A DNA stretch of 62,859 bases, counting the filler. It is 7 parts of 7 records of this genome, joined end to end, with 100 filler letters (N's around TTAATTAATTAA, not from the genome) between each part and the next. Parts side by side here need not be neighbours in the genome. Positions count along the whole stretch, not along the records: positions 10,134 to 18,721 come from SRR31156797_4712; 6 more parts are not named here. One strand, 5' to 3'. How positions within the stretch are numbered: position 1 is the first letter of the stretch; each line of letters starts with the position of its first letter. Shown one piece after another: positions 1,019-42,071 of this stretch. The notes under the pieces were generated by a model. The model saw only the letters and a list, made by a program, of their open reading frames with translations. It had not been told where the DNA came from and searched no databases. A program made the position numbers and the translations under genes.

Positions 1019-1192
1019 ATTTTCTCTCTTACACGTTAAATATTATTAAACCGCCCGCGGCACGGGCCGGTTTTTGAGATATAATTGCTCAAATTCATTA
1101 GCTTTATCAAACCCCTCAATCCCTACCATATTTGGGCTGTGCAGTCAATTAACTATATAAGCCTTTAGTCATCCGGTTTGGGCGCGAGAGGT

Positions 1193-2461: not shown

Positions 2462-2513
2462 AAAATTGTCCTTTTACACCGCTTGTTTCCAGCGGTAGGT
2501 TTTTGCATGAAAA

Positions 2514-3488: not shown

Positions 3489-3852
3489 GTTTTTTCCCGC
3501 TAACTTTCCCTTCCAGCACTTTCTTTTTATCAGCAATCAAAAAATCGTCAAGCCAAAATATCAAGACGCCCAATCTATAAATACGCCTAAAAAGAAGTAC
3601 TATTGAGTAACTGAGAACCTTTTTTCCTTTGTCCGGGGGCGATTTTTCTTTTCTCAGCCCATTGATGTTGAAATTATTAATTCTGAATGTTTAATAGTTA
3701 AAATTTGGGCGTCATTAATATAAAAAAGGGAAAAGCTTGATGTTTGGCGTGGGTTTTGTATAATATTCACATTGGTATGTTTAAATTATAATTGATTTTT
3801 ACTGCATTTACGATGTCCATTACAAAAGGGCGATTAGCAGACGGGGTGATGT

Positions 3853-4716
3853 ATGATTAAGAACCGGAGAATCCCTGTTTTTTTTATCGCGTTGATATTG
3901 CTGGTCAATTTTGTTCCAGTCTTTTCAGAGACCGCAGAGGGCGGTCGAGACATGCAGGGTTGGGGCAAGGACGGCAAATATGAAAAGCTGATAAAATGGA
4001 CCAAGCTCGAACACTTCAAGGGCATTGCCGTGGGAATGAAAGAAATTACGCCTCTGCCCGGAATGTCTCCGGGGCTGGCCCTTATGGTGAGGGAATCCGA
4101 CTTTGACACAATCGTTGTGCATATAGGCCCTAAGTGGTTTGTAGGATCCGTGGGCATCAAGGAAGGCGACCGGGTGAATCTACGCGGCGTCTGGGCCAAG
4201 ATAAATGACGAATGGGTTCTGATAGGATCCAAATTCAAACTGGGCGATATTACCGTATTAAAAGTTCGACGGAACCGGGATGGGACTCCTTTTTGGACAA
4301 TGAGTCAGGAAGAACTGGCCATGGAAATGGATGCTCAACGGGCCACCGGTTTGAAAGGCTGGGAAAAAGAAGGGGCTTATGAAAAGCAGATAAAATGGAA
4401 ACCCCCGGAGGATTTTAAGGGTATTATCGTGGGCGCCAAGGAAATCAGGCCATTAGAAGGCATGGCGCCGGGGTTGGCCCTGCTGATACGCGAATCTAAT
4501 TTTGACACGATCACTGTGCATGTAGGGCCCAAATGGTTTATCGGGGATTTGGGCGTCAAGGAAGGCGAGAAGGTCAGCCTGCGGGGCGTATGGACAAATA
4601 TAAACGGTGAAGACGTTTTGATCGCTTCAAAGATCAAAAAGGGCGACTACTTCGAATTCAAGGTGCGCAGGACTTCCGACGGACTGCCTTACTGGAATAC
4701 TTCCCAGAATAAATGA
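3853..4716 (+). CDS. Exported protein with two tandem copies of an OB-fold-like domain (VH(I/V)GPKWF motif)
   Basis: Hydrophobic N-terminal signal; two ~125-aa repeats (GW.K.G.YEK.IKW...FKGI.VG.KEI.PL.GM.PGLAL..RES.FDTI.VH.GPKWF...VRR..DG.P.W). Confidence 0.7.
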   Translation: MIKNRRIPVFFIALILLVNFVPVFSETAEGGRDMQGWGKDGKYEKLIKWTKLEHFKGIAVGMKEITPLPGMSPGLALMVRESDFDTIVVHIGPKWFVGSVGIKEGDRVNLRGVWAKINDEWVLIGSKFKLGDITVLKVRRNRDGTPFWTMSQEELAMEMDAQRATGLKGWEKEGAYEKQIKWKPPEDFKGIIVGAKEIRPLEGMAPGLALLIRESNFDTITVHVGPKWFIGDLGVKEGEKVSLRGVWTNINGEDVLIASKIKKGDYFEFKVRRTSDGLPYWNTSQNK

Positions 4717-4725
4717 CGCGTCTTT

Positions 4726-4758
4726 AAACCGGGGCGTTATGGTATAGCTCCCCGGTTT
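4726..4758 (+). terminator. Probable intrinsic terminator hairpin
   Basis: AAACCGGGG...CCCCGGTTT just after the stop at 4716. Confidence 0.55.
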
Positions 4759-4973
4759 GAAGCGAGTAGCTGAGCTACATCTACGTTGTTGCTATCATTC
4801 TGAAAAAGCAAATCTATAGGGATGTACGCCGTCGAACCTATCTTTGTTCCTTAGGATTGCCGCTTATCCTCCTGCCAAATCGGGACTCCAGGGAAATTTA
4901 ATAATGCCGGCTCCCCAATGCCTGTCAAAATCCATGCAGAAAATCCGGATCAGGGGCGCGGCCGAGGTATGAT

Positions 4974-6038
4974 ATGTGGTTGTTTGTCCGTATTAAGAGA
5001 TCGAATCGGTATTTGTTCTGTTCGTTGATTGCAGCCGTACTTTGTTTTTTTCTTTTTTCCTGCGTTTCAGGGGATCAGGTTGTGAAAAAGGAAAATATGG
5101 AGCATGGGCCTTTGGATTTGAAAAGCATCCGGACCTGGATGTACCAAATTCAGGACCTTGATGTCGACGGCGCGGTGGAGTCGCTGGCTGATAGCGATTA
5201 TCCATTGTTGGTGTTGGAGCCGGGACACAATTTTAGTGAAAGCCCTTATGATACAAAGGCCATTGTGTCGGCGCTCAGGTTTGCTCCAAATGGCAAGCGG
5301 CGCATTCTTCTGGCCTATATTGATATCGGCCAGGCGGAGGATTACAGGAATTACTGGGGCGATGACTGGGAGCGGCCCACGGAAAAAGGCCGAGGGCGGC
5401 CGGATTTCATTCTCACGGTGGATCCCGACGGGTGGAGCGGCAATTATCCGGCGGCGTATTGGCGTGAGGAGTGGAAGGAATTATGGCTGGGGAAAAGCGG
5501 AATCATTGCCGAACTTGCCGAATTGGGATTTGACGGCGTTTATTTGGATTGGGTGGAAGGGTATGACGATGACCACGTCAGAAGGGCCGCCGATGCCGAA
5601 AGCGTGTCCCCGGAAGAGGAGATGATCAATTTTGTTGAGGAAATAGGCGAAGCCGGGCGTCGGATTCGCCCGCAATTCCTGGTTATTGTTCAGAATGCGC
5701 CTTACCTTATTGATTTCGATTCCGCGAGGTATGCCGCGGCCATTGACGGAGCGGCCATGGAAGACACATGGTTTCACGGTCAAGGGGATGCGGATTGGGA
5801 CGATCCTGAAGCGGGAGACTTGAGGAGCAGGCATGATTATGAATGGTCGACCGAATCGAGGCTCAAACAATATAAAAAATATCAGGACCTGGGCATTCCC
5901 GTTTTTACAGTGGACTATTGCCTGAAGACGGAAAATGCGGCCTATGTTTATGAAAAGGCCCGCCAGGCCGGTTTGATACCTTTAGTGACCAGAGTTTCTC
6001 TTTCCCGGATAACGGAAACACCGCCGGATAAATACTGA
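4974..6038 (+). CDS. TM1410/MJ1477-family glycoside hydrolase (endo-alpha-1,4-polygalactosaminidase-like, GH114-related), lipoprotein
   Basis: Lipobox-like LFSC; WMYQIQ, LAYIDIGQAEDYRNYW, GFDGVYLDWV, IVQNA, VFTVDY. Confidence 0.8.
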   Translation: MWLFVRIKRSNRYLFCSLIAAVLCFFLFSCVSGDQVVKKENMEHGPLDLKSIRTWMYQIQDLDVDGAVESLADSDYPLLVLEPGHNFSESPYDTKAIVSALRFAPNGKRRILLAYIDIGQAEDYRNYWGDDWERPTEKGRGRPDFILTVDPDGWSGNYPAAYWREEWKELWLGKSGIIAELAELGFDGVYLDWVEGYDDDHVRRAADAESVSPEEEMINFVEEIGEAGRRIRPQFLVIVQNAPYLIDFDSARYAAAIDGAAMEDTWFHGQGDADWDDPEAGDLRSRHDYEWSTESRLKQYKKYQDLGIPVFTVDYCLKTENAAYVYEKARQAGLIPLVTRVSLSRITETPPDKY

Positions 6039-6304
6039 GAAAAGGGAGGCTGCTGCAGAGGGATAGAAAGCGATTCGCCTTAGATTACCGACCTCGGCGT
6101 GAGTATGGGTTTCATTTGTTGCCGAAAAGAAAATTATGTCTTATAATTAAGCCGTTTGGGCTATAAGTCGTCGCCGGCGTCTGTGACTTCCCGGTTAAGT
6201 GCGTCTTTTATTGCCGCCAAGGCGGCGTTGACAGGAAGCAGGCGGTTCGTTATTATTTGCATGTTTTCAGGGGTGCTTTTAGAAAACTGTAGAAAAAGGG
6301 GAAA

Positions 6305-7576
6305 ATGGATAGCAAACTCGATCAACTGATTCAATTGGGCGTGCGAGAGGGGTATTCCGATCTGCATATTACTGGCGGACATCCTCTTGTTTACAGGTAC
6401 AACGGCGTAATACATTCCGCCAAGGACATCAAATTAAGCCACCAGGAAGTGGACACCTGCGTTCTGGAACTGTTGACCCAGCGGGAATTGAGCATGTTGC
6501 GCAGCAGACTTTCGGTGGACCTGGCCAGGTCAATACACCGGGTTCGCGTCAGGATCAATGTTTTCAACACAACCAGGGGACTGAGTCTGGCCGTCAGGCT
6601 GTTGCCCGGAACGGTTCCGGAGCTTGGCAGTATAAACATTCATCCATCAATACAGCATTTTACAACGCTGTCCGAGGGCCTTATTCTATTATGCGGGCCC
6701 ACGGGTTGCGGAAAATCAACTACTATTGCTGCCATGCTGGAAGAAATAAACCGAACGAGGTCCACGCACATAATTACGCTGGAAGACCCGATCGAATACC
6801 GGTTTACCTCAAAGAAGTCATTTATCGAGCAGCGGGAGTTGGGCGTCCATTTTCCATCTTTTAAACAGGGTCTTATAGATGTTCTAAGGGAAGATCCCGA
6901 TGTTATAGTCGTGGGCGAGCTTCGTGAACCCGAGGTTATGCGATTGACTCTTAATGCCGTGGAATCCGGGCACCTGGTTTTTGCTACCTTGCACGCCACC
7001 AATTCCGAGGACGCCCTGTATAGGATTTCCAATTCTTTCCCGCCCGAGGCCCAGGCGGTTGTAAGAAATCAACTCGCTTCCACCCTGGCCCTTCTCGTGG
7101 TCCAAAAGCTTATTTATTTGAAAAGAGCGGGCTTCAGGATTCCTTTACTTTCAATATTGAGAAGCACTAATGCGATTAAAACCATTATCCGCGATGACAA
7201 GTTGTCATATATCGAGGGGGCTATGCAAACCGGTCGGTCCGCCGGAATGTTTACCACTGAAAAATACATGAGCGACTTTATCAATAAAAGGGAGTTTTTT
7301 ACCAAGCCGACGGAAAACTTCAAGCCTTCAACAGAGGTTACTTCTGAAATGATTTACCGGTCCCCCGTGATGGAGATGGACGACATCGACGTCCAGACTG
7401 CAATTCCGGTAAAAGAACCAAGAGCGCACCCCTCCTTGCATATGCCGGCTCCCGCCAAGCGGGGTGAGACCAAAAAGCCGGTTGACTACGGTTACGACCA
7501 CTGGGATACCGGTAGTCATTACACAATTGATGAAGAGGCGCCGATCAAGGATTTGATTGCGGAAATGACCAAGTAG
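6305..7576 (+). CDS. pilT: PilT/PilU-family type IV pilus retraction ATPase, paralogue 1
   Basis: SDLHI, Walker A GPTGCGKSTT, ITLEDPIE, LREDPDVIVVGELR, His-box GHLVFATLH. Confidence 0.85.
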   Translation: MDSKLDQLIQLGVREGYSDLHITGGHPLVYRYNGVIHSAKDIKLSHQEVDTCVLELLTQRELSMLRSRLSVDLARSIHRVRVRINVFNTTRGLSLAVRLLPGTVPELGSINIHPSIQHFTTLSEGLILLCGPTGCGKSTTIAAMLEEINRTRSTHIITLEDPIEYRFTSKKSFIEQRELGVHFPSFKQGLIDVLREDPDVIVVGELREPEVMRLTLNAVESGHLVFATLHATNSEDALYRISNSFPPEAQAVVRNQLASTLALLVVQKLIYLKRAGFRIPLLSILRSTNAIKTIIRDDKLSYIEGAMQTGRSAGMFTTEKYMSDFINKREFFTKPTENFKPSTEVTSEMIYRSPVMEMDDIDVQTAIPVKEPRAHPSLHMPAPAKRGETKKPVDYGYDHWDTGSHYTIDEEAPIKDLIAEMTK

Positions 7577-7665
7577 CTTATACGCGATTTTTATCGTGTA
7601 AAACTATTTTTACTTCCGGCGCCTCCTGGAAGAACTTTATTATAATATATCTTTTCATTTCTCCT

Positions 7666-7735
7666 TAGGTTGGGTTAGCGTAGTATAACCCAACAATTTC
7701 AAGATGTTGGGTTATGCTACGCTAACCCAACCTAC
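7666..7735. repeat. REP/REPIN-like nested inverted repeat
   Basis: TAGGTTGGGTTAGCGTAGTATAACCCAACA (7666-7695) and a near-perfect reverse complement at 7705-7734 ending CTAC; each arm is itself a hairpin. Confidence 0.7.
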
Positions 7736-8187
7736 AAAATGGCTAATCAATGACTTTATTTCAATGAGAAACAAGTCGTATCGCCCTTCCTCATATATAA
7801 AAACTGATATATGCGATATATCCTTGGGGGAAGAAAACCCTTGGAAGGCAACAGAAGTAAAATATGACATTTTATATCAATTTAATCGATATTATGATTC
7901 TGTGCGGTCTATACAACACACTGAAATATCAGTTGTTTGTTGAATCTAATACTTTTCTTCCCTAATTTTCTGCATTTAAATAATCTATTTTTCCGAAAAA
8001 CATTATTGGCATTTATGCGTAATAAAACTACTATGATATGATAAGCTATATATTAATAGGTTAAGATAAGATTCTTGTTGCCGGACAAATTTGCTACATT
8101 TCATGTAAATGGCGATAAAATATATGAAATGTTGATATATATTAATGCATTATCATTTTGCTGGGTTACAATCACGAGGGAAAAATA

Positions 8188-9513
8188 ATGGAAAAATTTA
8201 ATACCCTGATAGATTACGGGGTCCGGGAGAGCTTTTCCGATATCCATTTAACAGGAGGGCATCCCCTGGTATTCAGGAGAAACGGTGTAATCGATTTCCA
8301 GAAGGAAACAAAATGGAATCATGACGAAGTTGACGACCTTGTTGAAGAAATGCTTACGCCAAGAGAAATGGTTCTTCTGAAATCCTATCAATCCGTGGAT
8401 ATCGGCCGGAGCATCCATAACATCAGGGTCCGGATAAATGTTTTCAACACGACGCGGGGATTAAGCCTGGCTATTCGACTTCTTCCCGGAACGGTTCCTG
8501 AAATCGGCAGCCTCAACCTTCATCCTTCCTTGCGGGAGTTCGCTCACAAGGAGCAGGGTTTGTTCCTGATTTGCGGCGCCACCGGCTGCGGCAAATCAAC
8601 CACCCTGGCCGCAATGATAGAAGAAATAAACCGGACCAGGTCCGCTCATATTGTCACGCTTGAAGACCCGATTGAGTATAGGTTCAAATCCAGGAAATCC
8701 TTTATTGAACAGCGGGAATTGGGGACTCATATACCGTCTTTCGACCGCGGACTCTATGATGTGCTTCGGGAAGACCCGGATGTTATTCTGGTCGGCGAGC
8801 TTCGGGATCCCGAGACAATGAGGTTGACGTTGAACGCGGTTGAATCGGGTCACATGGTTTTGGCGTCGCTTCACGCCAGCAATTCAGAGGATGCGGTGTA
8901 CCGTATTTGCAATTCATTTGCCCAGGAAGCGCAGGATATAGTGCGGCATCAGCTCGCGTCCACGCTGTCGGTCCTGGTGGTGCAAAGGCTTAAATATCTT
9001 CCGCGGGCGGGGTTCAGGGTTCCGTATCTGTCAATTATGACCGGTTCAACATCTGTTAAGGGCATGATAAGGGACAACCGGCTGACTCAGCTTGAAAGCG
9101 CCATACAAACCGGTCGCGTCGACGGGATGATGAACATGGATCAGTATGTGGCCGACTTTATAGATCAGCGCGAGTTTTTTACTTTGCCGTCCGAGAATTT
9201 CAAGCCTTCGGCGGAGAGCACTACCGAGCTTGTTTATACATCACGTCACATGGTTCCCTATTCCGGTATACACAGAGAACAGCCGGCTCCGCCAAAAGTT
9301 AAGACTCCGTATCATCCTTCATCGCCCATACACAAGCCCGAGCCGCCCGCTCCACTTCATGGCCCGCTGCAACCCCCCTTGCCTCCTTTAATGGGGGAAA
9401 GCAGGATGACAATGAACGAAGAAGGCGCCTGGGATGCGGAGCCGCGTTATGACATAAGCGAAGATACGCCCATGGCCGAACTTATCGCCCAAATGAAGAA
9501 GATGGATTCATAG
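8188..9513 (+). CDS. pilT: PilT/PilU-family ATPase, paralogue 2
   Basis: GATGCGKSTT, VTLEDPIE, LREDPDVILVGELRD, GHMVLASLH. ATG at 8188 follows GAGGG and aligns with the start of paralogue 1. Confidence 0.85.
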   Translation: MEKFNTLIDYGVRESFSDIHLTGGHPLVFRRNGVIDFQKETKWNHDEVDDLVEEMLTPREMVLLKSYQSVDIGRSIHNIRVRINVFNTTRGLSLAIRLLPGTVPEIGSLNLHPSLREFAHKEQGLFLICGATGCGKSTTLAAMIEEINRTRSAHIVTLEDPIEYRFKSRKSFIEQRELGTHIPSFDRGLYDVLREDPDVILVGELRDPETMRLTLNAVESGHMVLASLHASNSEDAVYRICNSFAQEAQDIVRHQLASTLSVLVVQRLKYLPRAGFRVPYLSIMTGSTSVKGMIRDNRLTQLESAIQTGRVDGMMNMDQYVADFIDQREFFTLPSENFKPSAESTTELVYTSRHMVPYSGIHREQPAPPKVKTPYHPSSPIHKPEPPAPLHGPLQPPLPPLMGESRMTMNEEGAWDAEPRYDISEDTPMAELIAQMKKMDS

Positions 9514-9540
9514 AAAAGAAATTTCAGTTCAAACGTAAGC

Positions 9541-9560
9541 GGGCGGGATTATACCCGCCC
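9541..9560. terminator. Hairpin between convergent genes
   Basis: GGGCGGG-attata-CCCGCCC followed by a T-rich tract. Confidence 0.6.
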
Positions 9561-9599
9561 ATTTTATTTTAACAAGTTTTACTCGAGATTAAATTCGGC

Positions 9600-9908
9600 T
9601 TAAATGGAAGCTATTTCCTTGAAAGTTGTAATTTCCGGCTCTCCATCCAGGTAGCCGGCTACTTTCCCGAAGAATTCCTGAAAATAAGGGGTGCTGCTAT
9701 GGAATTTTAGAGCTTCCCCGTCTTTGTACCTTTCCATGAAGACTAATACGTTCGGATTGTTTTTATCAATATTCAAGGTGTATAGTAAACAACCTTCTTC
9801 TTCGGCCACTTTGGCGACCAGCCCTTTTACCACTTCCACTGCTTCATCAACCATATCCGCCTTGATCGGAAGCTTGGCGATTACACTAATCATTTCGATC
9901 CTCCTCAT
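9600..9908 (-). CDS. Antibiotic biosynthesis monooxygenase (ABM)/YgiN-family putative quinol monooxygenase
   Basis: MISVIAKL...EEGCLLY...FMERYKD.EAL.FH..TPYF. The true start is probably the internal ATG ending at 9893. Confidence 0.8.
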   Translation of the reverse strand: MRRIEMISVIAKLPIKADMVDEAVEVVKGLVAKVAEEEGCLLYTLNIDKNNPNVLVFMERYKDGEALKFHSSTPYFQEFFGKVAGYLDGEPEITTFKEIASI

Positions 9909-10033
9909 TTAATGATTTATCGTCCACATGCTGAATTGCTGTTATAATGACCACTATCCAGGAATTATCCCTCCGTGTCAATAAATACGGGACGGATTAA
10001 ACCTAATTAGTGTCTGTCCAGAATGAGGAGTTT

Positions 10034-10225: not shown

Positions 10226-11383
10226 GTGGAGGGATTAATGGCAAAGCATAGTAATATAGATCCTACTATAGGAAATTTTTATCATTATTGTATTGTTGTC
10301 AGTAAACTATTTATGTTGAAACACAATGAAAAATTAGTTATAGAGGTATATGGTGATTTAACTAAAGTTAGAATAAACGATAATTACTTTTTAGAGAACT
10401 ATGAAATTAAACATCATAAAGATTCTAATACTCTAAATTATTCTAATATTGATTTTTGGAAAACGATTAAAAATTGGGTCGAAAACTTTGATTCTTATTC
10501 TTCTGATACAAAACTGATTTTATATACAACATCTACAAAAGATGAAAGTCTCCTAAATTTTAATAATAAGACAAAAGAAGAAAAATTTAATCTATTAACT
10601 AATTGGAAAGATAAAACAAAAAATTCTGAAATAAACGATTTAAATAAAACTATATTTAAAAATAAAACCAAATTAAAAAATGTACTGTCTAAAATACAAT
10701 TTGAAACTGATATGGCGAAATATGAAAAAGTAAGAAACAAAATAATTGAAGATAATCATATTTATTTTAATATTTTTAAAGAAAATACAACAATTAAGAT
10801 AAAAGCAATTAATTATTTTATAGCAGAAATTATATCATCACTAAAAAATAAAACAAATTGGGAAATAACAGATATTCAATTTAGAGATATAATAAATGAT
10901 TTTGCAGATAGAAATAAGATTGATAATATTAAATTAGAAGAATCAGATTTAATGATTAATGATGATGAGGATAATAAGTTAAAAGAAGATTTAGTATTAC
11001 AGCCTTTGTATATACAAAAACTTCAAAAAATAAATTTATCTCAACAAAAAATTAAACGAGCATCAAGACATAAAATTAGAGCTATAAATTTTATATCTCA
11101 AATTCAAGATAATAGTTTTACTTATGGAAAAAAAATAGAAAAGTGTGCTGAAGTATTTATTGATCATTTAGATGAAATAAAAAGTGATTATGATTTTGAA
11201 AAAGATGTAAATTTAAATATTGAAAATTCAAAAAAAGTTTTTGATAATGCTATGAAAATAGATAAATTATGTTTAGTTGATGAAGATCAAACTACATCAT
11301 TTCGTAAAGGTTTTTGGCACATACTAGCAAATGATAAAGAAAATAAAGATATGCATTGGTTAATAAAGGATAAGGAAAAATGA
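10226..11383 (+). CDS. lmuA: Lamassu/ABC-3C effector LmuA: Cap4-like PD-(D/E)xK endonuclease + C-terminal domain
   Basis: IEVYGD...YEIKHH...IDFWKTIKNW nuclease core; C-terminal FRKGFWHILAND...MHW resembles ABC-3C CTDs; first gene of an overlapping triplet. Confidence 0.75.
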   Translation: MEGLMAKHSNIDPTIGNFYHYCIVVSKLFMLKHNEKLVIEVYGDLTKVRINDNYFLENYEIKHHKDSNTLNYSNIDFWKTIKNWVENFDSYSSDTKLILYTTSTKDESLLNFNNKTKEEKFNLLTNWKDKTKNSEINDLNKTIFKNKTKLKNVLSKIQFETDMAKYEKVRNKIIEDNHIYFNIFKENTTIKIKAINYFIAEIISSLKNKTNWEITDIQFRDIINDFADRNKIDNIKLEESDLMINDDEDNKLKEDLVLQPLYIQKLQKINLSQQKIKRASRHKIRAINFISQIQDNSFTYGKKIEKCAEVFIDHLDEIKSDYDFEKDVNLNIENSKKVFDNAMKIDKLCLVDEDQTTSFRKGFWHILANDKENKDMHWLIKDKEK

Positions 11384-11850
11384 ATGTTATTGAAGCAATT
11401 AATCTTACTAAGAACTCTCCAAATAAAGTTGCTAAAGAATTACAAAGTTTTATTTACGGATTTAAAGATAGAAGAGATGTAAGTTATTTTGATTTATTTT
11501 TATTTTATCCATTTTTTAGTTACAAGCCTTCACACGATTTTTTTGATAAACAAATGAGATTATCAAATAAAGATAAAGTAAATTTTTTCATAGATAATTC
11601 AAGTTCTCAACCTGAAATATTTGCAAATATTAAATTCGATTTTTATGAAACAATTTATTTAACAAAAGAAGCAATAATTTATGGAATCAATAATAAATAT
11701 TTTTTAATAGATGATAATTTTATTATTAAACTTAAAACAGAACATTTATTAAATAAAAATAGAGTCAGTGAAAATATTGGAAAGTTTTTATCGACTCAAA
11801 ATACTGCATATTTATATAATTATTTTAAGGTGGACATAGATGCAATTTAA
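11380..11850 (+). CDS. lmuC: Lamassu/ABC-3C middle component (LmuC-like)
   Basis: 156 aa, overlapping both the effector (ATGA) and the ATPase; LFLFYPF and TKEAIIYG motifs. Confidence 0.7.
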   Translation: MNVIEAINLTKNSPNKVAKELQSFIYGFKDRRDVSYFDLFLFYPFFSYKPSHDFFDKQMRLSNKDKVNFFIDNSSSQPEIFANIKFDFYETIYLTKEAIIYGINNKYFLIDDNFIIKLKTEHLLNKNRVSENIGKFLSTQNTAYLYNYFKVDIDAI

Positions 11851-13795
11851 GTTAGAAAAAATGATACTTATCTTTAAGGATGGTGAAAAAAGAGATTTAA
11901 AGTTTCATGATGGAGTTAATATAATTTCGGGAAAATCCCAAACAGGAAAAAGTGCCTTAATTGATATAATTGATTATTGTTTATTTTCAACTAATTGTAC
12001 TATTCCTCAAGGGGTCATAAGTAAAAATGTTGCAGTTTATTGCATTGTTGTTTGGATTAATAATAGAAAATTAATTTTAGCAAGAAATGAATATAGTGCT
12101 TCTCTTAACCCAGGAAGATCAAAAATTTTTTATGAAGAAAAAAGTGATTTATTTGACACTGACTTAATTTCAGTAGATTATTTCACTAAATATAAAAATC
12201 ATTATGTATCTATAGAGCATTTTAAAAAGTATATAAAAATTCTTTTAGAACTTACTACTGATGAAATGCCATTAGATGATTTTAATGAAAGTGTTCTTTC
12301 TTTTCGTAGTATGACTTCTTTTATGTTTCAACATCAAAATTTAATGGCAAATAAATATGCACTTTTCTATAGATTAGATTCATTTAGTAGAGTTAAGCAA
12401 ACACAAAGAGACTTAAAAATATATATGAATATTCAAAATATAGAGCTCTTGAAAATTGATGAGCGATTGGAACAAATCAAAAAGGAATTAAAGCAGATAA
12501 AAAAAGATGAAAAGTTTATTAATAAAAAGTTCAATGATTTAATTAATGAATTAAAAACTGATTGCATAACTTACTATGGACTATATGGAGGTTTAGATGC
12601 AGAAGAGAAAATATATAAAATATCTAATTTTAGTAATGTGGATACATTAAACTATAATGAGGTTATAAAAGATATTAAAAGCCATGGTATAGAAAGTAAT
12701 ATGCCAAAAGAGTTAACTAAGTTAGAAGAAAAGAAAGATTTATATTTTAATAAAATAAATCAATTATTAATGCAACTTGAAGATATAAAAAACTATGAAA
12801 AAGATCTTAGTTCTATAAAAGGAATATTAACTGTTGATTATAAGATTTCTGAAGAAACTGGATGTCCATTATGTAGCACAAAAAATATTTTAAATCAAGA
12901 TAAATATATTAAAGCAAAAAAATTAATAAAAGAAGAATTATTAGAAATAGAAACATCATCTCCTCAAATAGTAGAAGAAAAAGTTAATTTAGAACAAAAA
13001 TTAATTAATAATAAAAAAGAATTTATAAAAGTTAATACTAAGTTTTTAAATATGAAAAAACAATATGAAAGTATAACAAGAACGGAGGAAAAAAAAGAAG
13101 AACTTCTTAGATTAAAAACAGAAATACTCTCTAAGCAAAAGTTTTTAAAAGAATTAAAAAAGTTTCATGACAAAGATAAAGAAGAACTAATTAATGAAGA
13201 AAAAAAATTAATTGAACAAAAAGGAGATTTTGATTCTACAACAAAATTAAAACAGATAGAAGTAAAGATATCAGAATATATTAATGAAATAATTAAAAAT
13301 GGCTTTCCATTAGAAAATAGCTTAGGTAAACCAAATTTGTATTTTAACATAGAAGATTTTAGTTTATATCAGCAATTAAATTCTAAAAGAATATATTTAA
13401 GTGAAATGGGAAGTGGATCAAATTGGCTTAACTGCCATATCTCATTAATGATAGGGCTACATAAGTATATTTCTTTTAGTAATGCTAAAATACCATCATT
13501 TTTATTTTTTGATCAACCTAGTCAAGTATATTTTCCTTCAGAAGAAGATATTAAATACCCTAATAATGATAATAGAGAATCAGATTTAGTAACAGTTAAA
13601 AGTATATTAAAGAAAATAATTGAAAATGTAGATTTAATTAATAATCACAATAATTGTAAATCAAAACTTCAATTATTTATTACTGATCATGTAAGTTTTA
13701 AAGAAGATTGGTTTTCAAGTCATGTTATCGAAGATGGAATTTGGAGTGAAGGTAAAAAATTAGTTCCTTTAAAATATGAAAATGAAAATAATTAG
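11840..13795 (+). CDS. lmuB: Lamassu SMC-like ABC ATPase (DUF3732 type)
   Basis: Walker A GKSQTGKS, FQHQN, coiled coil with CPLC zinc hook, signature MGSGSNW, Walker B FLFFDQPSQVYF, ITDH. Confidence 0.85.
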   Translation: MQFKLEKMILIFKDGEKRDLKFHDGVNIISGKSQTGKSALIDIIDYCLFSTNCTIPQGVISKNVAVYCIVVWINNRKLILARNEYSASLNPGRSKIFYEEKSDLFDTDLISVDYFTKYKNHYVSIEHFKKYIKILLELTTDEMPLDDFNESVLSFRSMTSFMFQHQNLMANKYALFYRLDSFSRVKQTQRDLKIYMNIQNIELLKIDERLEQIKKELKQIKKDEKFINKKFNDLINELKTDCITYYGLYGGLDAEEKIYKISNFSNVDTLNYNEVIKDIKSHGIESNMPKELTKLEEKKDLYFNKINQLLMQLEDIKNYEKDLSSIKGILTVDYKISEETGCPLCSTKNILNQDKYIKAKKLIKEELLEIETSSPQIVEEKVNLEQKLINNKKEFIKVNTKFLNMKKQYESITRTEEKKEELLRLKTEILSKQKFLKELKKFHDKDKEELINEEKKLIEQKGDFDSTTKLKQIEVKISEYINEIIKNGFPLENSLGKPNLYFNIEDFSLYQQLNSKRIYLSEMGSGSNWLNCHISLMIGLHKYISFSNAKIPSFLFFDQPSQVYFPSEEDIKYPNNDNRESDLVTVKSILKKIIENVDLINNHNNCKSKLQLFITDHVSFKEDWFSSHVIEDGIWSEGKKLVPLKYENENN

Positions 13796-13798
13796 GTA

Positions 13799-16700
13799 GT
13801 GGAAAAGTTTATGATATTAAAAGAATCTATTCAAAAAATATATAATGAAAAAACAGATTATAATTACCCTAGTCAAGTAATGGATCAATCAAATTTATTA
13901 GAAACAGTGTCTTCTGATATTTATACTGATCCAAAAAGATTTATTTATGAACTTTTACAAAATGCAGATGATTCATCAATAAATAACTCTAAAAATCAAG
14001 TTAGTATTAAAATTATTAATGATTATTTAGTTTTTGCCCATAATGGAAAAATATTTTCTAATAGAGATATTGAAGGGTTATGTTCTGTAAGTAATGGAAC
14101 AAAAAAAGATGACAAAACAAAGACAGGTTACAAAGGTATAGGCTTTAAGTCAGTTTTTGGGCAGTCTGAAGAAGTGACTATTTATACTAATAATGAATAC
14201 TTTAGATTTGATAAAAAACATAAAATTGAATGGAAAACAAAGTGGGGTAATACTCAAGAGGAATGGGAAAGAGAAAATAAAAGACTATTTATATCTCCTT
14301 GGCAACTTATACCTATTTATACAGAGAAAGACTTTTTAAGTCGTGATATAAATATTTTCTTAGAAGAGGGAAAATTTACAGTTGCTACTATTTTAAAAAT
14401 TAAAAGTATAGATAATTTAAAAAAAGAATTAAATGATTTAGTTCAAAACATTAATATGTTTATTTTTTTAAGAAATATAAATAAAATAAATATCTCAATT
14501 GATGAAGAAATAATAATAGAAATTGAACATATATCTGATTGTGAAATTATATTAAAGAAAAATTCTATAATCAAGTCATCTTGGTTAATAAAAAATATAA
14601 AACTAGAAGTTGATAGTGAAATAAAGCAAGAAATTCAATTTGAAAAAAATATTCCTGATAAATTAAAAGAATCAGATCAAATAGAATTGACTTTATGTGC
14701 TAAAAAGGATAAACAAGGAATAGTTAAAGTTATAGAAAATGAAAGTTTATTGTACTCTTATCTTCCTACAAGCACTAGATTAAATTTACCTATTTTAGTT
14801 AATACAACTTTTATTATGGGAGCAAATAGAGAATCATTACATACAGATTCTTTATGGAACAAATGGTTGTTTTCTAATATTTCTTATAAGTTGATAGAAT
14901 GGATATCAGAATTAGTTCTTACAGAATATTCCTTTCAAGCATATAGATTATTTCCTCAAAAATTAAATTCCAATTACTCTTTTAATATTGATTATAATAA
15001 AGGTATTGATAAAGCAATCGAAACTCTGCCCTTACTTCTTTCGACAGAACAAAAGCTATTAAAAATTAGTGATTCTATTTATGATGAAGTTTCTTTTTCA
15101 AATCAACATTTTATATCTCGATCTTTAATTAAAGATTTTGTACTAGAAAAGAAAAATAAAGAAAAAAACATTGATTATAATCCATTCATTCAAAAAACAG
15201 GCTTTGAACATATTTTTCATGAAATTGGTCTGATGGAATTTAAATGGGAAGACATTTCATCATTTCTTAACTATCCAAATTTTGTAGAAATACATAATGT
15301 CAGTGATAATATTGAATTAATAAAATTTTTAAAGGAATCTGAGCGTCCAGAAAGAATCAAGGATAAAACTTTTAAAAACTGGTCTTTTATAATGGATCAC
15401 CAAGAACAGTTGAAAATACCTACAGATATTCTTTTACCTTTAGTAGATGATGAAGATTGGGAAAAAGAAACAGAACTATCTTATTTACATAATGATATAA
15501 AAGATTTTATATCATTAAATAGTGAGTATAAAAAATGGTTAGAAGAACTTGGTATAAAAGAAAAAACAGAACTAAGTTATATAGAAACTAATATTTTACC
15601 TAATATTGAAGATTATATTACTACGGATAGTGCAATTAAACAAACAAAAGACTTTTATGAATTATTTACTCAGGGGAAGCTTACACAAGATATATTTAAT
15701 AAATTATCAAATATGAAAGTATTAACTACAAAAGGTAATAAAATTCCAATTTCTGATTGCTATTTTTCAAATTGTTTTAACCCAGAAGTGGAACTAGAAA
15801 CACTATTAGATAGAGATATTTTTCTAAATGAAAATTATTTATTTACAAATAAAGATAGAGATAATATTAAAGTGTTTTTTAATAAGTTAGGTATAAAGCA
15901 GAGTATTTTACTTATTAATACCGAAAAAAGAATTAGTAAATCAGAATTAAATATCAAGTATGAAATTAATGAAGAATATTTTAATAATATAGACCAGTAC
16001 ACTGGTTATCCTCATTTACCAATTACAAGTTATTCTGATGTTATAAGTATAGAGTATATACTAAGTACTGTTGAATACAATTTATCAAAATTGTATTGGA
16101 ACTATATTGTTACAAGTGACTATGCTACTAAAATTAATAAAAAAGCTATTGGTTATTGGGGATATAGTACTCAAAGTGGGCAGATTAATGGAAAATCAAT
16201 AGAAAACTATATTAGTTGGCTAATAAAAAATATAGATTGTATCCCTACTAAATTAAAAAAATGTTTTAAATCGACAGAAGTATTTTTAAACAATGATAAT
16301 ATTTCTAAAATTGGAGATGGATATTTACCAATTGTTGATATTGAAAATTTAGATGATACCTGGAAATCTTTCTTCAGTTTTAAAACAGTTTTAGAGTTTG
16401 ATGATTATATAGAGGCCTTTTCTTTGATTATAAAAGATATGACTTCTGATAAAAAGCTAAAAAAAGATAACTTAGATAAAGTTATAAATATCTATGAGTA
16501 TTTTATAGATAATTGTTTAAACTTGGATGAATCTAAAGTAAAATCAATTAAAGATATATTTAGTTCATTATTAATTCCAGATTTAAATTTAAATGTTAAA
16601 TTATTAAATGAACTAAAATATACGAATGAAGAAGATACTAGTATTTTTGCAGATGATTATAATTTTATATATTTTAGTAAAGAAAATCAATCTAACCCAA

Positions 16701-18637
16701 ATTTAAAAAAGTTTTTAGAAATTATAGAAATTGATGTTTTAACAGATAAAGATTTTCAAATTGAAAAAATAGGTGAAAAAAGAGAAAGTAATTTAAAAAG
16801 AGAATTATTATTTATATTACCATATTTAAATAATTGGCTATTTCACCAAGATAAGATGTTCGATGAAAAAAAACAAGAGGTATTAAAATTACAAATAGAA
16901 AAAATAGAAATATTTGAGTATGAAAAGTTAAAAACAGTAAATAAATATATAAAAATTTATTTTGAAGATCATATTTTAAATATTGCGAAAAATTGGAAGT
17001 CTAATAGTGTACAAATAAAATTATTCACTAAATTATCAAATTACTTAAATATTAAAGGTCATGAAGATAAATTAAGATTTTTATTAAATGCTGATAATAA
17101 AGATGAGATTATAGAATATTTTATAAGTGAAAAGATTGAAATACCAATTGTGATTAGTTCAGAAAAAAATCATGAAGTTATTTCGAAGGAAGAGGAAATA
17201 TCTACTTTAGGTATAACAGAAAAAGATTATACAGATATCACGAAAATTTCAAATAACTATTCTCATGAATCTGAGTCATCAATAGAAAAAAAGAAATATA
17301 TTTTGGAATTATTAAGGCGATCTAAAAAAAATGTATTAGCGCATTTAAATAGTTTAGATGAATATAATTGTGAAAACGTAGATACTAGTGCTTTAACTGT
17401 ATTATCAGGAATAAAGAAAAATGGTAATGATATTTTTATAATTCCGCGTCCTTCAGATAATGGTCAAGTGATACTTCATTATGATTCAGAATTTGATACG
17501 TTAGAGTATACTGATTCAGAATTATGGTATGACGATGGATATTCTATACCTAAAAAATTAACTTTTGGAAAAGTACTTAGAGAAGCAAAAATAAATAGGA
17601 TACCAATAATAAAAACTAATAAAAATATTATTGATATTATTTATGATAATGAAAATGAAAATATTACATATAAGCCTATTTTACCATCATCTTTTGATAT
17701 AGCAAAAATAATGGCTTCATTTGCCAATACAAATGGTGGTTATTTAATAATTGGGTGCTCGAAAGAAGAAGGAATAATAGGGTTAAGTAGTGAATTTAAT
17801 ATTGATGAATTAACTAGGAAATCTATTGAATATTCAAGTTATTTTGAACAGTTTAAAATGGAAGAAAAAATTATAGATGGTAAAACTTTGATTGTTATAA
17901 AAATTGATAAATCTGATGAAACTATTCTTATTGAAGGTAAGAAATACATTCGTTATGGCCAAATAATAATTGAAGAATTAAGAGACAATAATAAACCATT
18001 AATTATTACCGAAGGAAAAACAGATTGGAAACATATAAAAAAGGCTTTAGATCAATTTAAAAATAATGGACATTATGTAGATTTGGATATTCAGTTTTTA
18101 GAGTATGAAGATATGAATATGGGAGATGGGGAATTAGATAGAATGGTTCAAACTTACTGCAAAATTGAACAGTCTAAAAAACACATTTTTATATTTGATA
18201 GAGATAATAGTACTTTTCTTAAAAAATATGCAACTGAAAGATTTAATAATCATCAAAATAATGTATATTCTTTTTGTATTCCAAAAATTAGTTGTGAGCT
18301 AGATAAAATTTGTATAGAGTTTTATTATAAAGAAGAAGATTTAAAGACTGAGGATAAATTTGGTAGAAGAATATTCATTGGTAAAGAATTTTTAGCTAAT
18401 GGAAATAGTTTATGTGGTAAGTATGTAACTGAAAAAAGAAAAGCTAATAAACTTGATATTTTAGATAGAGATAAAAAGGTTTATTTAAGAGAAGATATAG
18501 AGTGGAAAAATAATATTGCTCTTTCAAAAAATGATTTTACTAATAATATTATAAATGAAGTAGAAAATTTCAATGATTTTGACATTGAGTATTTTAAATT
18601 AATATTTGATGTAATAATGGATATTGTTAATGATTAA
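13799..18637 (+). CDS. Sacsin-like GHKL ATPase fused to Schlafen/AlbA_2-like and C-terminal TOPRIM domains
   Basis: RFIYELLQNADD, HNG, GYKGIGFKSVF (sacsin N-terminal ATPase); IAKIMASFANTNGGYLIIG (AlbA_2); LIITEGKTDWKH...IFIFDRD (TOPRIM E and DxD). Confidence 0.8.
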   Translation: MEKFMILKESIQKIYNEKTDYNYPSQVMDQSNLLETVSSDIYTDPKRFIYELLQNADDSSINNSKNQVSIKIINDYLVFAHNGKIFSNRDIEGLCSVSNGTKKDDKTKTGYKGIGFKSVFGQSEEVTIYTNNEYFRFDKKHKIEWKTKWGNTQEEWERENKRLFISPWQLIPIYTEKDFLSRDINIFLEEGKFTVATILKIKSIDNLKKELNDLVQNINMFIFLRNINKINISIDEEIIIEIEHISDCEIILKKNSIIKSSWLIKNIKLEVDSEIKQEIQFEKNIPDKLKESDQIELTLCAKKDKQGIVKVIENESLLYSYLPTSTRLNLPILVNTTFIMGANRESLHTDSLWNKWLFSNISYKLIEWISELVLTEYSFQAYRLFPQKLNSNYSFNIDYNKGIDKAIETLPLLLSTEQKLLKISDSIYDEVSFSNQHFISRSLIKDFVLEKKNKEKNIDYNPFIQKTGFEHIFHEIGLMEFKWEDISSFLNYPNFVEIHNVSDNIELIKFLKESERPERIKDKTFKNWSFIMDHQEQLKIPTDILLPLVDDEDWEKETELSYLHNDIKDFISLNSEYKKWLEELGIKEKTELSYIETNILPNIEDYITTDSAIKQTKDFYELFTQGKLTQDIFNKLSNMKVLTTKGNKIPISDCYFSNCFNPEVELETLLDRDIFLNENYLFTNKDRDNIKVFFNKLGIKQSILLINTEKRISKSELNIKYEINEEYFNNIDQYTGYPHLPITSYSDVISIEYILSTVEYNLSKLYWNYIVTSDYATKINKKAIGYWGYSTQSGQINGKSIENYISWLIKNIDCIPTKLKKCFKSTEVFLNNDNISKIGDGYLPIVDIENLDDTWKSFFSFKTVLEFDDYIEAFSLIIKDMTSDKKLKKDNLDKVINIYEYFIDNCLNLDESKVKSIKDIFSSLLIPDLNLNVKLLNELKYTNEEDTSIFADDYNFIYFSKENQSNPNLKKFLEIIEIDVLTDKDFQIEKIGEKRESNLKRELLFILPYLNNWLFHQDKMFDEKKQEVLKLQIEKIEIFEYEKLKTVNKYIKIYFEDHILNIAKNWKSNSVQIKLFTKLSNYLNIKGHEDKLRFLLNADNKDEIIEYFISEKIEIPIVISSEKNHEVISKEEEISTLGITEKDYTDITKISNNYSHESESSIEKKKYILELLRRSKKNVLAHLNSLDEYNCENVDTSALTVLSGIKKNGNDIFIIPRPSDNGQVILHYDSEFDTLEYTDSELWYDDGYSIPKKLTFGKVLREAKINRIPIIKTNKNIIDIIYDNENENITYKPILPSSFDIAKIMASFANTNGGYLIIGCSKEEGIIGLSSEFNIDELTRKSIEYSSYFEQFKMEEKIIDGKTLIVIKIDKSDETILIEGKKYIRYGQIIIEELRDNNKPLIITEGKTDWKHIKKALDQFKNNGHYVDLDIQFLEYEDMNMGDGELDRMVQTYCKIEQSKKHIFIFDRDNSTFLKKYATERFNNHQNNVYSFCIPKISCELDKICIEFYYKEEDLKTEDKFGRRIFIGKEFLANGNSLCGKYVTEKRKANKLDILDRDKKVYLREDIEWKNNIALSKNDFTNNIINEVENFNDFDIEYFKLIFDVIMDIVND

Positions 18638-18821: not shown

Positions 18822-19302
18822 AGAGATTAAAGACTTAGTTGAAAATGCAACTGCAAAAGCAAATGAAGGTAAAACAATTAGTGCAGATATGATTGTAGGA
18901 TATAACTCACTTCTTGAAAACATCAGTAACTCAACTGAAAAAATCAATGAAATTGCAAGTGCAAGTAAAGAGCAAGAGACGGGTATTACTCAAATTAATG
19001 ATGCAATTAACCAGTTAGACAAACAGACTCAAGAAAATGCTTCTATTGCAAACAAAACTCATGATATTGCAATAGATACAGATAGAGTTGCAAAAGAGAT
19101 TGTTGCTGATGCACAAAGTAAAGAGTTTATTGGAAAAGAGAATGTAAGTATTAAAAAAGAGAAGCCTTCTTCTAAAGCTACTCTAAGTACTCATACTAGT
19201 GAAATAAAATCTAAACCTACAAGCAAAGATACAGAAAAACCTGCATCAAATCATACTTTTAAAGCAGAAAAAAGTAGTGATGATGAATGGGAATCATTCT
19301 AA
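18822..19302 (+). CDS. Methyl-accepting chemotaxis protein, C-terminal fragment
   Basis: EIKDLVE...ASKEQETGITQINDAINQLDKQTQENAS and C-terminal pentapeptide EWESF. Confidence 0.85.
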
Positions 19303-19424: not shown

Positions 19425-19904
19425 TTGGCACAACTTATAAGTAGTCTTATTAAATGGGCAATATTCTTTGGAATCTTATATTTAATATTTACTAACTTTG
19501 GAACATTTTTAATTATTTTATTTATACTAGTTTCTATTGGTTATTACATAGTTTATCAATTTAAAAAGAAGATAAGAGAAGCTTCATCTGGAAACGGTCA
19601 ACACTTTAAATTTACATTTAACGGTCAAGACTTTTCACAAGCAAATGGTGCAAATAACTTTGATTTTAATGATTTTCAAGAACAGTTTAGAAGAGGAAAC
19701 TTCCAAGGTGCAGGTACATCTTTTGGAGAAGTACCAAAGGCAAAAGAGTTCTTTGGATTTACAAGTGACCCAACAAAAGAAGAGATAAAAAAAAGATATA
19801 AAGAGCTTGCAAGAAAATATCATCCAGATATAAATGACCATGGTGATGAACTTATGCAACAGCTAAATCACTATAAAGATGTTCTTCTAAAAGCCTTTCC
19901 ATAA
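19425..19904 (+). CDS. Membrane-anchored DnaJ-domain protein
   Basis: Two N-terminal TM segments; J-domain EIKKRYKELARKYHPD. Confidence 0.85.
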   Translation: MAQLISSLIKWAIFFGILYLIFTNFGTFLIILFILVSIGYYIVYQFKKKIREASSGNGQHFKFTFNGQDFSQANGANNFDFNDFQEQFRRGNFQGAGTSFGEVPKAKEFFGFTSDPTKEEIKKRYKELARKYHPDINDHGDELMQQLNHYKDVLLKAFP

Positions 19905-19918: not shown

Positions 19919-20416
19919 ATGTTTCTTCAAAGATTAAAACTATTTTTTATAACTGTTACAGTTTTAGGAACAATCTTTTTAATCTACTCAATCTACAACA
20001 CTTATAAATTTAAAACTTCCGATTTAAATGAAAAAACACAAAATAGAATCACTCAGAAAACTCAATATTTACAAAGATTAGCTTACCAAAAGTTTGGAGT
20101 AAAAAGAGAGATTCCAGTTAGAGTTTCTAATAAAATGCCCTCTAATCTTTTTGGTGCAGCAACTTTAAGTCAATCAGGAGAAATAGTAGTCTTTCTAAAT
20201 AAAAAGAGATTTAAAGAGAGTGTTGATTATATGATTGATGATGTATTACCCCACGAATATGCTCATGCTTTGATGTTTGTATTTGGTGACTTAAGCAGGG
20301 AAAATGGTGGCCACTCTTTAAAGTGGCAAAATATTTGCAAGGCTTTAGAAGGAAAACGATGTAATAGGTTTGTTAATCACAATGATGTGATTTTTGGCAA
20401 AACAAATATATTTTAA
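19919..20416 (+). CDS. SprT-like zinc metalloprotease domain protein
   Basis: HEYAH...GHSLKWQ. Confidence 0.8.
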   Translation: MFLQRLKLFFITVTVLGTIFLIYSIYNTYKFKTSDLNEKTQNRITQKTQYLQRLAYQKFGVKREIPVRVSNKMPSNLFGAATLSQSGEIVVFLNKKRFKESVDYMIDDVLPHEYAHALMFVFGDLSRENGGHSLKWQNICKALEGKRCNRFVNHNDVIFGKTNIF

Positions 20417-34993: not shown

Positions 34994-35093
34994 NNNNNNN
35001 NNNNNNNNNNNNNNNNNNNNNNNNNNNNNNNNNNNNNTTAATTAATTAANNNNNNNNNNNNNNNNNNNNNNNNNNNNNNNNNNNNNNNNNNNN
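34994..35093. other. Artificial contig linker
   Basis: N-run with TTAATTAATTAA. Confidence 0.98.
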
Positions 35094-42065: not shown

Positions 42066-42071
42066 AACGTC

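Follow-up and report, generated by a model that had tools for sequence, protein, structure and literature searches.

A gene on the forward strand of the DNA analysed here, a stretch of 62,859 nucleotides (nt) assembled from seven joined parts and hereafter called the window, probably encodes a single-polypeptide anti-phage protein of the Tiamat family. The protein appears to be built on the chassis of the Type V Tiamat-like proteins, with their terminal caspase exchanged for a Toprim nuclease of the retron Eco2/OLD type whose two-metal site is intact. Tiamat (TmtA) is known from Bacillus cereus as a GHL ATPase encoded by one standalone anti-phage gene (Millman et al. 2022, cited in 10.64898/2026.09.30.754977), and the text of the citing preprint, dated 1 October 2026, describes Tiamat-like proteins which swap the C-terminal nuclease for other effectors, including a Type V-A with a Schlafen-like domain and an active peptidase. 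Both Tiamat and the effector-swap principle are therefore already known, and the Toprim-bearing type would, judged from its sequence, be an added effector variant. A preliminary description of the window had proposed a sensor-effector defence gene in one protein, a reading which our results support, and had regarded its architecture as belonging to no named system. The latter view does not hold, as residues 5-1163 match the PADLOC profile for TmtA in one stretch (profile positions 1-1148 of 1302, E=1e-251) and effector-swapped Tiamat-like types are described in the same preprint.

The open reading frame (ORF) was found where it had been claimed, at 13799-18637 with a GTG start and 1612 codons, and its translation contains every motif quoted in the preliminary description (ASFANTNGGYLIIG, ENENITYK, IITEGKTDWKH, GDGEL, FIFDRD, CIEFYY and LSKNDF). 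Because the G+C content of this stretch is 23%, a stop would be expected every ~9.5 codons; the five alternative frames contain 76-275 stops, and 1612 open codons would arise by chance with a probability of ~10^-77. The true start is probably the ATG at 13811, giving a product of 1608 amino acids (aa), since the family consensus opens with MxIKE and a gene encoding a 90%-identical protein, from an uncultured member of the Campylobacterales (locus L001 of genome G001), starts there. The L001 gene has 1608 codons from the equivalent ATG and aligns with the window gene without gaps. A GGAAA stretch precedes the ATG at 13811.

The overall architecture anticipated in the preliminary description, namely a GHKL/sacsin ATPase, a long core, a nuclease-like segment, an AlbA_2/Schlafen domain and a Toprim domain, was borne out (Table 1). 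At the N-terminus, the sacsin-type ATPase was recovered by Pfam SACS (residues 42-234, E=3.1e-10) and by NCBIfam P_loop_sacsin (residues 46-129, E=7.8e-24). Its Bergerat-fold residues, E51, N55 and D58 in the motif ELLQNADD together with G113 and G115, are invariant in 17 of 17 family members. The core of Tiamat consists of tetratricopeptide repeat (TPR)-like folds according to the text of 10.64898/2026.09.30.754977; in the corresponding part of the window protein, Pfam DUF3684 did not score at E<=0.01.

The C-terminal quarter of the protein was modelled in two pieces. The first model, of the last 468 residues, was good for the Toprim domain only (predicted local distance difference test, pLDDT, below 50 at model residues 34-251), so a second was made of residues 1145-1399. 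In exhaustive comparisons with VIA-align, residues ~1165-1264 of the second model matched tRNA-splicing endonuclease subunits (Z 8.2, 7.9 and 7.0), Hjc (6.5) and I-Ssp6803I (6.2), as well as lambda exonuclease, VRR_NUC and FAN1 folds, a range of Z 5.5-8.2 being quoted for EndA, Hjc and I-Ssp6803I; Foldseek returned no match for this part. The domain occupies the position of DUF3883/NOV_C in Tiamat. A hidden Markov model (HMM) built from it matches the extreme C-termini of Tiamat-like proteins of 1306-1361 aa over the same profile range, weakly (E=0.002-0.03 for the best five), and its three nearest Atlas clusters carry NOV_C (score 0.84, a language-model lead only). Pfam assigned no family to the region in 23 of 23 sequences, and the lysine of a (D/E)xK motif is not evident in the alignment; the motifs RPSD and SEF..LEY..E.W are invariant. 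On the basis of the models, a degenerate NOV_C-like endonuclease fold appears to be retained at this position in both the Toprim and the caspase types, which agrees with the nuclease-like segment suspected at ~17320-17600 (residues ~1175-1268).

The AlbA_2/Schlafen-like domain, likewise suspected beforehand, was confirmed by Pfam (residues 1285-1387, E=2.1e-9) and by fold matches to 3lmm (Z 10.3) and to SLFN11, SLFN12 and SLFN13. The catalytic triad of SLFN13 is given as E205, E210 and D248 in PMC5862951. Reading ENENITYK as the EFK-type motif, position 1290 is equivalent to the second catalytic Glu and is T, I, S or A across the family, and position 1321, aligned to the Asp of the SLFN13 motif 'GVDD', is S or T, the assignment of D248 to GVDD following from spacing. 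Two of the three catalytic carboxylate positions thus lack carboxylates, and the domain is probably not an RNase, in line with the inactivity already conjectured for it.

The preliminary description had likened the C-terminal domain to the effector of the Ec67 retron, and profile and fold agree in placing Eco2 nearest. The PADLOC model RT-Toprim_I-C matches residues 1378-1611 at E=5.3e-30, over model positions 316-526 of 529, that is, over its Toprim part only. Residues ~1400-1612 are modelled with pLDDT above 90, and a Foldseek search of the PDB with this domain places retron Eco2/Ec67 in all five top ranks (E 1.4e-6 to 4.1e-5). VIA-align superimposes it on Eco2 (9i2f) with Z 12.8 and a root-mean-square deviation of 2.8 A over 168 aligned residues (~23% identity), followed by BpOLD 6nk8 (Z 7.7), TsOLD 6p74 (6.4), retron Eco8 (6.0), GajA (5.9) and AriB (5.5). 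In the HMMER/PDB profile alignment, E1405 and D1409 of ITEGKTD correspond to Eco2 E374 and D378, and D1467 and D1469 of FDRD to D460 and D462; the PDB sequence search reached Eco2 only at E=0.11, and its short alignments were used solely to map the E..D and DxD motifs. Alanine mutants of these four Eco2 residues are reported to abolish defence (PMC12405507). All 17 family members share E1405, D1409, D1467, D1469 and K1577, and 16 of the 17 also have E1507. The catalytic lysine of OLD-type enzymes could not be mapped with confidence, the 'K562' of PMC12405507 not being a Lys at Eco2 chain position 562 by count. Pfam found no reverse transcriptase domain in the protein. The window contains no tRNA, tmRNA or Rfam family, so no retron-like non-coding RNA (ncRNA) was detected there.

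Two database proteins place the effector junction, as far as sequence can locate it, at residues ~1396-1402, with the Toprim cassette standing in place of a caspase. Relative to P0035, a Bacillus wiedmannii 'caspase family protein' with SACS, AlbA_2 and Peptidase_C14 domains in precomputed Pfam annotation, the window protein is collinear at 40% identity over residues 5-1402, and homology ends at ~1402. Relative to P0021, a Roc-COR-LRR (leucine-rich repeat, LRR) protein, it is 75% identical over residues 1396-1612 and nowhere else. A FastTree phylogeny of 180 Toprim domains groups P0021, the HEPN_Toprim_N protein P0086 and P0087 within the Tiamat-like clade (support 0.77), and the Toprim of the more distant family member P0023 falls outside it. 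The cassette is widespread, with 869 proteins at E<=1e-10 in a phmmer search of 1.84 billion representatives. Pfam annotation of 40 sampled relatives recovered OLD-like ABC ATPase domains (AAA_15, AAA_21, AAA_23 or SMC_N) in 22, LRRs in four, HEPN_Toprim_N in two, an N6_N4 methylase in two and nothing recognisable in ten; a reverse transcriptase was found in none of the 40. Longer relatives bear NACHT/STAND modules, and plasmids encode the cassette as part of Clostridium perfringens AAA ATPases (39%) and of a Herpetosiphon 'RNA-directed DNA polymerase' (34%).

In every case AlbA_2 separates the NOV_C-like fold from the exchanged effector, and a role for it as an adaptor or nucleic-acid dock is speculative. 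Some loci carry the chassis in pieces. In L003 (1117-9449) and L010, the core and NOV_C-like fold end an ORF of 1294 aa, AlbA_2 opens one of 355 aa, and an unannotated ORF of 1114 aa follows. A Bacillus tropicus plasmid (L083, NZ_CP065740.1, 5228-8611) gives a weak match to residues 1074-1383 (tblastn E=4e-6), which runs from the end of an ATP-binding protein of 800 aa into the start of the adjoining TIR-domain protein. These split forms suggest a further type in which the effector is supplied in trans. On a Calothrix brevissima plasmid (L084, AP018212.1, 3175-6381), the NOV_C-like domain occurs by itself at the end of a hypothetical protein of 1068 aa, with 48% identity to residues 1148-1261 and no match in the rest of the protein; TIR and TPR proteins adjoin it. 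The domain therefore travels with other chassis too.

How such a protein might work can be outlined from its parts. The ATPase and variable core would sense an infection cue and control the effector, the conserved C-terminal modules would hold or position it, and the activated Toprim would cut nucleic acid, the resulting arrest of the cell stopping phage growth. We lean, by a little, towards RNA or tRNA as the substrate because the Toprims of Eco2, P2 OLD and AriB are reported as tRNases. In isolation the Eco2 Toprim is described as toxic and active as an RNase (PMC12405507), and the Toprim of Eco2 is reported to nick RNAs, among them tRNAs at their acceptor stems (PMC12916289); tRNase activity is reported for P2 OLD in 10.64898/2026.07.10.737580, and also for the AriB Toprim of PARIS. 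DNA is the less favoured candidate, and is considered in view of the DNA endonuclease GajA and of the ssDNase activity of B. cereus Tiamat. A DNase chemistry, in which the Toprim would degrade or nick phage DNA in the manner of GajA-type OLD enzymes, as opposed to growth arrest of the tRNase type, seems to us somewhat unlikely. It would accord with the nicking of dsDNA and cutting of ssDNA described for B. cereus Tiamat (10.64898/2026.09.30.754977), with the second tier of fold matches (BpOLD, TsOLD and the DNA endonuclease GajA) and with the OLD-like ABC ATPases in 22 of the 40 sampled cassette relatives. However, the nearest relative by both profile and structure is Eco2, an RNase/tRNase, the reports on P2 OLD and AriB point the same way, and two of the 40 relatives carry HEPN_Toprim_N, a domain also found in HEPN (RNase) fusions.

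A more specific version of the tRNase reading is put forward only tentatively, as its parts are unlikely all to apply. It envisages a tRNase gated by a GHL ATPase, in which the NOV_C-like fold would be a dimerisation hub, the dead Schlafen domain a dock for tRNA or other nucleic acid, and the effector a plug-in at a fixed junction after AlbA_2. The Toprim would then cut tRNA presented by the Schlafen remnant, and the plug-in cassette would be a Toprim here and a caspase or TIR elsewhere, held in common with Roc-COR-LRR sensors at 75% identity. The text of 10.64898/2026.09.30.754977 predicts that the nuclease domain of Tiamat doubles as a C-terminal dimerisation module, and the strong conservation of the degenerate NOV_C-like fold would fit such a role.

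The Toprim-type family is rare. A word-indexed search yielded 17 clusters whose proteins measure 1530-1621 aa and cover no less than 85% of the C-terminal query at 43-90% identity, in addition to two shorter, probably cut clusters; one cluster is named from Aliarcobacter cryaerophilus (P0013). A first contig scan with the single protein as query returned one locus, and relatives were reached via G001. In the order to which G001 belongs, one of 401 sampled genomes has the protein family, and among 184 genomes of the taxonomic family of G001 two hold full-length copies and a third the Toprim part only. Fifteen members are ~50% identical overall, with identities of 38-41% in the core (residues 241-1144), 49-54% in the ATPase, 64-76% in the NOV_C-like domain, 56-81% in AlbA_2 and 72-81% in the Toprim. 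A fast-changing middle combined with a conserved effector is the pattern we would expect of a sensor-effector protein engaged in an arms race. Comparison of the window and L001 genes, both intact, indicates purifying selection, with a ratio of nonsynonymous to synonymous substitution rates (dN/dS) of 0.19 overall. A non-working gene, decaying or domesticated and merely carried in the island, is very improbable indeed. The rarity of the family, the catalytically degenerate Schlafen domain and perhaps also the NOV_C-like fold would be in keeping with a remnant, but 1612 codons have stayed open at 23% G+C, the catalytic residues of ATPase and Toprim are invariant in 17 of 17 relatives, and dN/dS lies between 0.09 and 0.26 in every domain.

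Immediately upstream lies a Lamassu set, as stated in the preliminary description, with LmuA, MC3/LmuC and LmuB each matched by PADLOC or Pfam (Table 1). No effector domain was recognised in LmuA by Pfam, NCBIfam or PDB sequences, PADLOC PDLC03848 being its sole match. The gap of 3 nt formerly given between the lmuB stop and the next gene is correct from the GTG; from the probable ATG start it is 15 nt. Co-transcription of lmuB and the Tiamat-like gene in the window is likely since no terminator-like site separates them, and promoter-like sites (60, against 78.9 in shuffles) are uninformative. A stretch common to the window and L001 (91.9% nt identity) opens within the last ~55 nt of lmuB and ends 66 nt past the stop of the Tiamat-like gene. 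These 55 nt are genuine lmuB: the tail they encode, WSEGKKLVPL, resembles the end of the L088 homologue of LmuB (WNDDKKLIPL) and, more loosely, the ends of those in L085, L086 and L087. The L001 copy therefore descends from an lmuB/Tiamat-like junction like that of the window. The junction predates the split between the two copies, that of L001 having moved, or been kept, without Lamassu. An intact L001 copy without Lamassu fits a gene that works alone.

Several observations weigh against a standalone Tiamat-like protein armed with a Toprim. Within the protein, the substrate is taken from the nearest solved relative, while DNA is the target of GajA-type OLD relatives, and ssDNA that of B. cereus Tiamat; the evidence for the endonuclease-like fold consists of a model of pLDDT 70.6, middling Z-scores (6-8), weak HMM matches and a language-model lead; and the protein matches no Pfam Toprim family at E<=0.01, though the Toprim domain named in the preliminary description is upheld by RT-Toprim_I-C and the Eco2 fold match. 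Among its surroundings, the Toprim-type contexts read amount to five independent ones, with most database homologues (P0005-P0019, including A. cryaerophilus P0013) outside this count. No terminator-like site lies in the 15 nt between lmuB and the gene. L001 keeps the decayed lmuB 3' end of ~55 nt at 9945-10012, non-coding and with small deletions, between the SbcC-like gene and the Tiamat-like gene. Finally, a weak LmuA-like ORF (E=5.1e-10) stands just downstream of the caspase-type gene in L033.

The points of context bear on a composite four-gene system, in which the Tiamat-like protein would be a functional fourth component, as second effector or sensor, of the Lamassu operon. We judge this improbable. 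The gene shares strand and very low G+C with lmuB and follows it closely; the remnant in L001, with a tail W-x-x-G/D-K-K-L-V/I-P-L in common with L088, makes the junction ancestral to both copies; an SMC/Rad50-like ATPase, SbcC-like and accompanied by SbcD, precedes the gene in L001 too; and L033 has its LmuA-like ORF. However, Lamassu adjoins the gene in none of the four other Toprim-type contexts. In L001, where the gene is intact (dN/dS 0.19), SbcD- and SbcC-like genes lie upstream and a Gp49/HigB-like gene downstream, and G001 has no DUF3732 (LmuB) match anywhere in its genome. L004 has a ParE-like toxin upstream and a HipA-N fragment downstream. L022 has a polyketide synthase fragment and a phosphopantetheinyl transferase upstream; in G537, arranged likewise, the gene comes after 535 nt that hold no ORF, and the sole DUF3732 match of the genome is on another contig. 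In L023 unrelated ORFs stand beside the gene and a SMEK-domain protein nearby. A phmmer search with the window's LmuA, LmuC and LmuB against 1107 ORFs from 82 loci and the window matched the window alone. Tiamat, moreover, is defined as standalone, and the text of the neighbourhood survey in 10.64898/2026.09.30.754977 does not mention Lamassu. The SbcC-like/SbcD pair of L001 was considered as an analogue of Lamassu and set aside as coincidence, owing to its SbcC_Walker_B and Metallophos domains and its recurrence in no other locus. A fourth Lamassu component, as suggested in the preliminary description, thus fails as a general rule.

The caspase-type and split loci were read through 67 of 73 neighbouring ORFs in 19 loci, four pieces of the gene itself and two duplicates being left out. 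Ten of the 19 have PADLOC defence matches at E<=1e-5 among their neighbours, all different: a type II restriction endonuclease (REase), PDC-S06, SIR2-HerA with a type I REase, Avs2 with PDC-S07, a RecD-like protein, a TIR-type prokaryotic Argonaute (TIR-pAgo), GajA/GajB, a HEAT/caspase protein, a weak Cas10-like protein and the weak LmuA-like protein. In these ten loci homologues do stand near defence genes; Lamassu is beside the gene in none of the four other Toprim-type contexts. Varied neighbours are, on sequence grounds, the pattern of a standalone gene in defence islands. We therefore regard the upstream Lamassu as a likely separate system of the same island, probably co-transcribed with the Tiamat-like gene and not needed by its product.

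Table 1. Coordinates of the Tiamat-like gene, its domains and the adjoining Lamassu genes in the window.
Feature	Position	Strand	Evidence
Tiamat-like (TmtA-family) gene	13799..18637	+	TmtA PDLC03972, E=1e-251; probable start ATG 13811
GHL (sacsin/Hsp90-like) ATPase, residues 42-234	13922..14500	+	Pfam SACS, NCBIfam P_loop_sacsin
Fast-evolving Tiamat core, DUF3684-type, residues ~235-1144	14501..17230	+	TmtA model; domain identities
Degenerate NOV_C/PD-(D/E)xK-like endonuclease fold (apparent), residues ~1165-1264	17291..17590	+	VIA-align, weak HMM matches
AlbA_2/Schlafen-like domain, residues 1285-1387	17651..17959	+	Pfam E=2.1e-9; fold matches
Eco2/OLD-type Toprim nuclease cassette, residues 1396-1612	17984..18637	+	PADLOC RT-Toprim_I-C; Foldseek; VIA-align
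LmuA, Lamassu	10226-11383	+	PADLOC PDLC03848, E=6.4e-21
LmuC-type middle component (MC3)	11380-11850	+	Pfam PF20131, E=3.3e-6
LmuB, SMC-like ATPase with DUF3732	11840-13795	+	PADLOC PDLC03859, E=5.8e-83; DUF3732, E=8.1e-39
Stretch common to window and L001, 91.9% nt identity	13740..18703	+	Opens in last ~55 nt of lmuB, ends 66 nt past stop

Other features of the window describe the setting of this block. Composition breaks at ~9.9 kb, with G+C of 43-51% to the left (1-9900), where radical SAM/SPASM genes, GH114 and two T2SSE-type ATPases are found, and 19-32% to the right (9900-36000), a region which includes uvrC, glyA, rho and ispG. A type I restriction-modification (R-M) block at 36-43.6 kb is again rich in G+C, up to 50%. 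Such shifts mean either that the assembly is chimeric or that a low-G+C backbone resembling Campylobacterales has received several foreign insertions. Downstream of the Tiamat-like gene, the similarity of a 137-aa ORF at 18889-19302 (+) to methyl-accepting chemotaxis proteins is confined to their final ~70 positions (NCBIfam CcaA, 631-700 of 700), and the ORF is apparently what is left of the 3' end of a chemoreceptor gene. Insertion of the Lamassu/Tiamat-like block into this gene, or beside it, is possible; the right edge of the block would then fall between 18703 and 18889.

About 800 nt downstream of the Tiamat-like gene, a small protein with a C-terminal J-domain (19425-19904, +) is followed by a SprT/Wss1-family metalloprotease (19919-20416, +). 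A J-domain is also part of human SACSIN, and a dead Wss1-like fold has been ascribed to the Tiamat core. The pair is not kept beside the gene in L001, L004, L022 or L023, and its presence here is probably coincidence. A second defence cluster occupies 35042-43649 on the reverse strand. It comprises an AAA_15/AAA_21 ATPase (35634-36914) with a 199-aa partner (35042-35641) and the type I R-M genes hsdR (36972-39827), hsdS (39827-41056) and hsdM (42072-43649), with a YhcG/DUF1016 PDDEXK nuclease (41049-42065) embedded between hsdS and hsdM. Further along, a Mu-type transposase with helix-turn-helix and Mu-transpos_C domains lies near an ORF for a phosphoenolpyruvate-utilising enzyme, the two sites being 52983-54281 (-) and 55282-56280 (+); the enzyme ORF ends after 59 positions of its C-terminal domain and is probably truncated.

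While these results extend the catalogue of Tiamat-like effectors and overturn no current view, they present a natural experiment in which one chassis carries a caspase in some lineages and an Eco2-type Toprim here, attached at a single joining point. For the nearest solved relative of this effector both the substrate, tRNA, and the catalytic residues are known, so that simple read-outs such as tRNA cleavage and toxicity of the isolated domain are at hand. The models suggest that effector-swapped Tiamat-like proteins have retained a degenerate version of the supposedly 'lost' PD-(D/E)xK domain, which bears on the proposed role of this domain in dimerisation, and the lmuB remnant in L001 offers a concrete record of defence genes cut from one island and pasted into another. 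The Eco2-type Toprim cassette, the retained degenerate NOV_C-like fold and the lmuB remnant appear to be newly described. The words Toprim, Lamassu and retron do not occur in the text of 10.64898/2026.09.30.754977, whose supplementary tables may list a Toprim type; the text of the companion NOV preprint contains no Toprim, Lamassu or Schlafen; the bacterial Schlafen paper mentions neither sacsin, Tiamat nor Hsp90; and a full-text literature search for Tiamat together with Toprim returned no paper connecting the two.

Among known systems, the protein has in common with Tiamat an Hsp90/sacsin-like ATPase with a catalytic Glu, a DUF3684-type core, apparently a nuclease-type fold after the core, and a setting in defence islands; in B. 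cereus Tiamat, E44 is needed for defence (10.64898/2026.09.30.754977). It differs from Tiamat in that DUF3883/NOV_C does not score in Pfam and lacks a clear (D/E)xK lysine, and in the addition of a dead AlbA_2 domain and a Toprim. With these two domains following a degenerate NOV_C, the presumed catalytic effector is the Toprim and not the PD-(D/E)xK nuclease. With the Type V-A proteins it shares 40% collinear identity from residue 5 to ~1402, the NOV_C-like fold and a Schlafen-like domain without catalytic residues, whereas they end in a Peptidase_C14 (caspase) domain, for which Pfam found no match here, and it ends in a Toprim cassette. According to the text of 10.64898/2026.09.30.754977, the PD-(D/E)xK domain of Type V-A is 'replaced'; in our analysis a degenerate endonuclease-like fold appears to be kept in both types.

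Retron Eco2 provides the nearest Toprim by profile and fold, with the equivalents of E374/D378 and D460/D462 kept, and by analogy both would hold a C-terminal effector in check through an N-terminal sensor module. In Eco2 this module is a reverse transcriptase with a cage of multicopy single-stranded DNA (msDNA) and ncRNA, whereas here it would be a GHL ATPase. The OLD family (P2 OLD, GajA of Gabija, AriB of PARIS) likewise couples a two-metal Toprim effector to an ATPase sensor, but the ATPase is of the ABC class there and of the GHKL class here, and the likeness in fold is lower (Z 5.5-7.7). Lamassu adjoins the Tiamat-like gene in the window with no conserved co-occurrence elsewhere, and is a neighbour rather than a parent family. 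The homology of Tiamat to SACSIN and NO VEIN has been argued in two preprints of October 2026, one of them 10.64898/2026.09.30.754977. The window protein resembles both in its sacsin-type GHL ATPase and its apparent NOV_C-type C-terminal fold, and differs from them in being bacterial, in having a single ATPase repeat and in carrying a Toprim effector found in neither.

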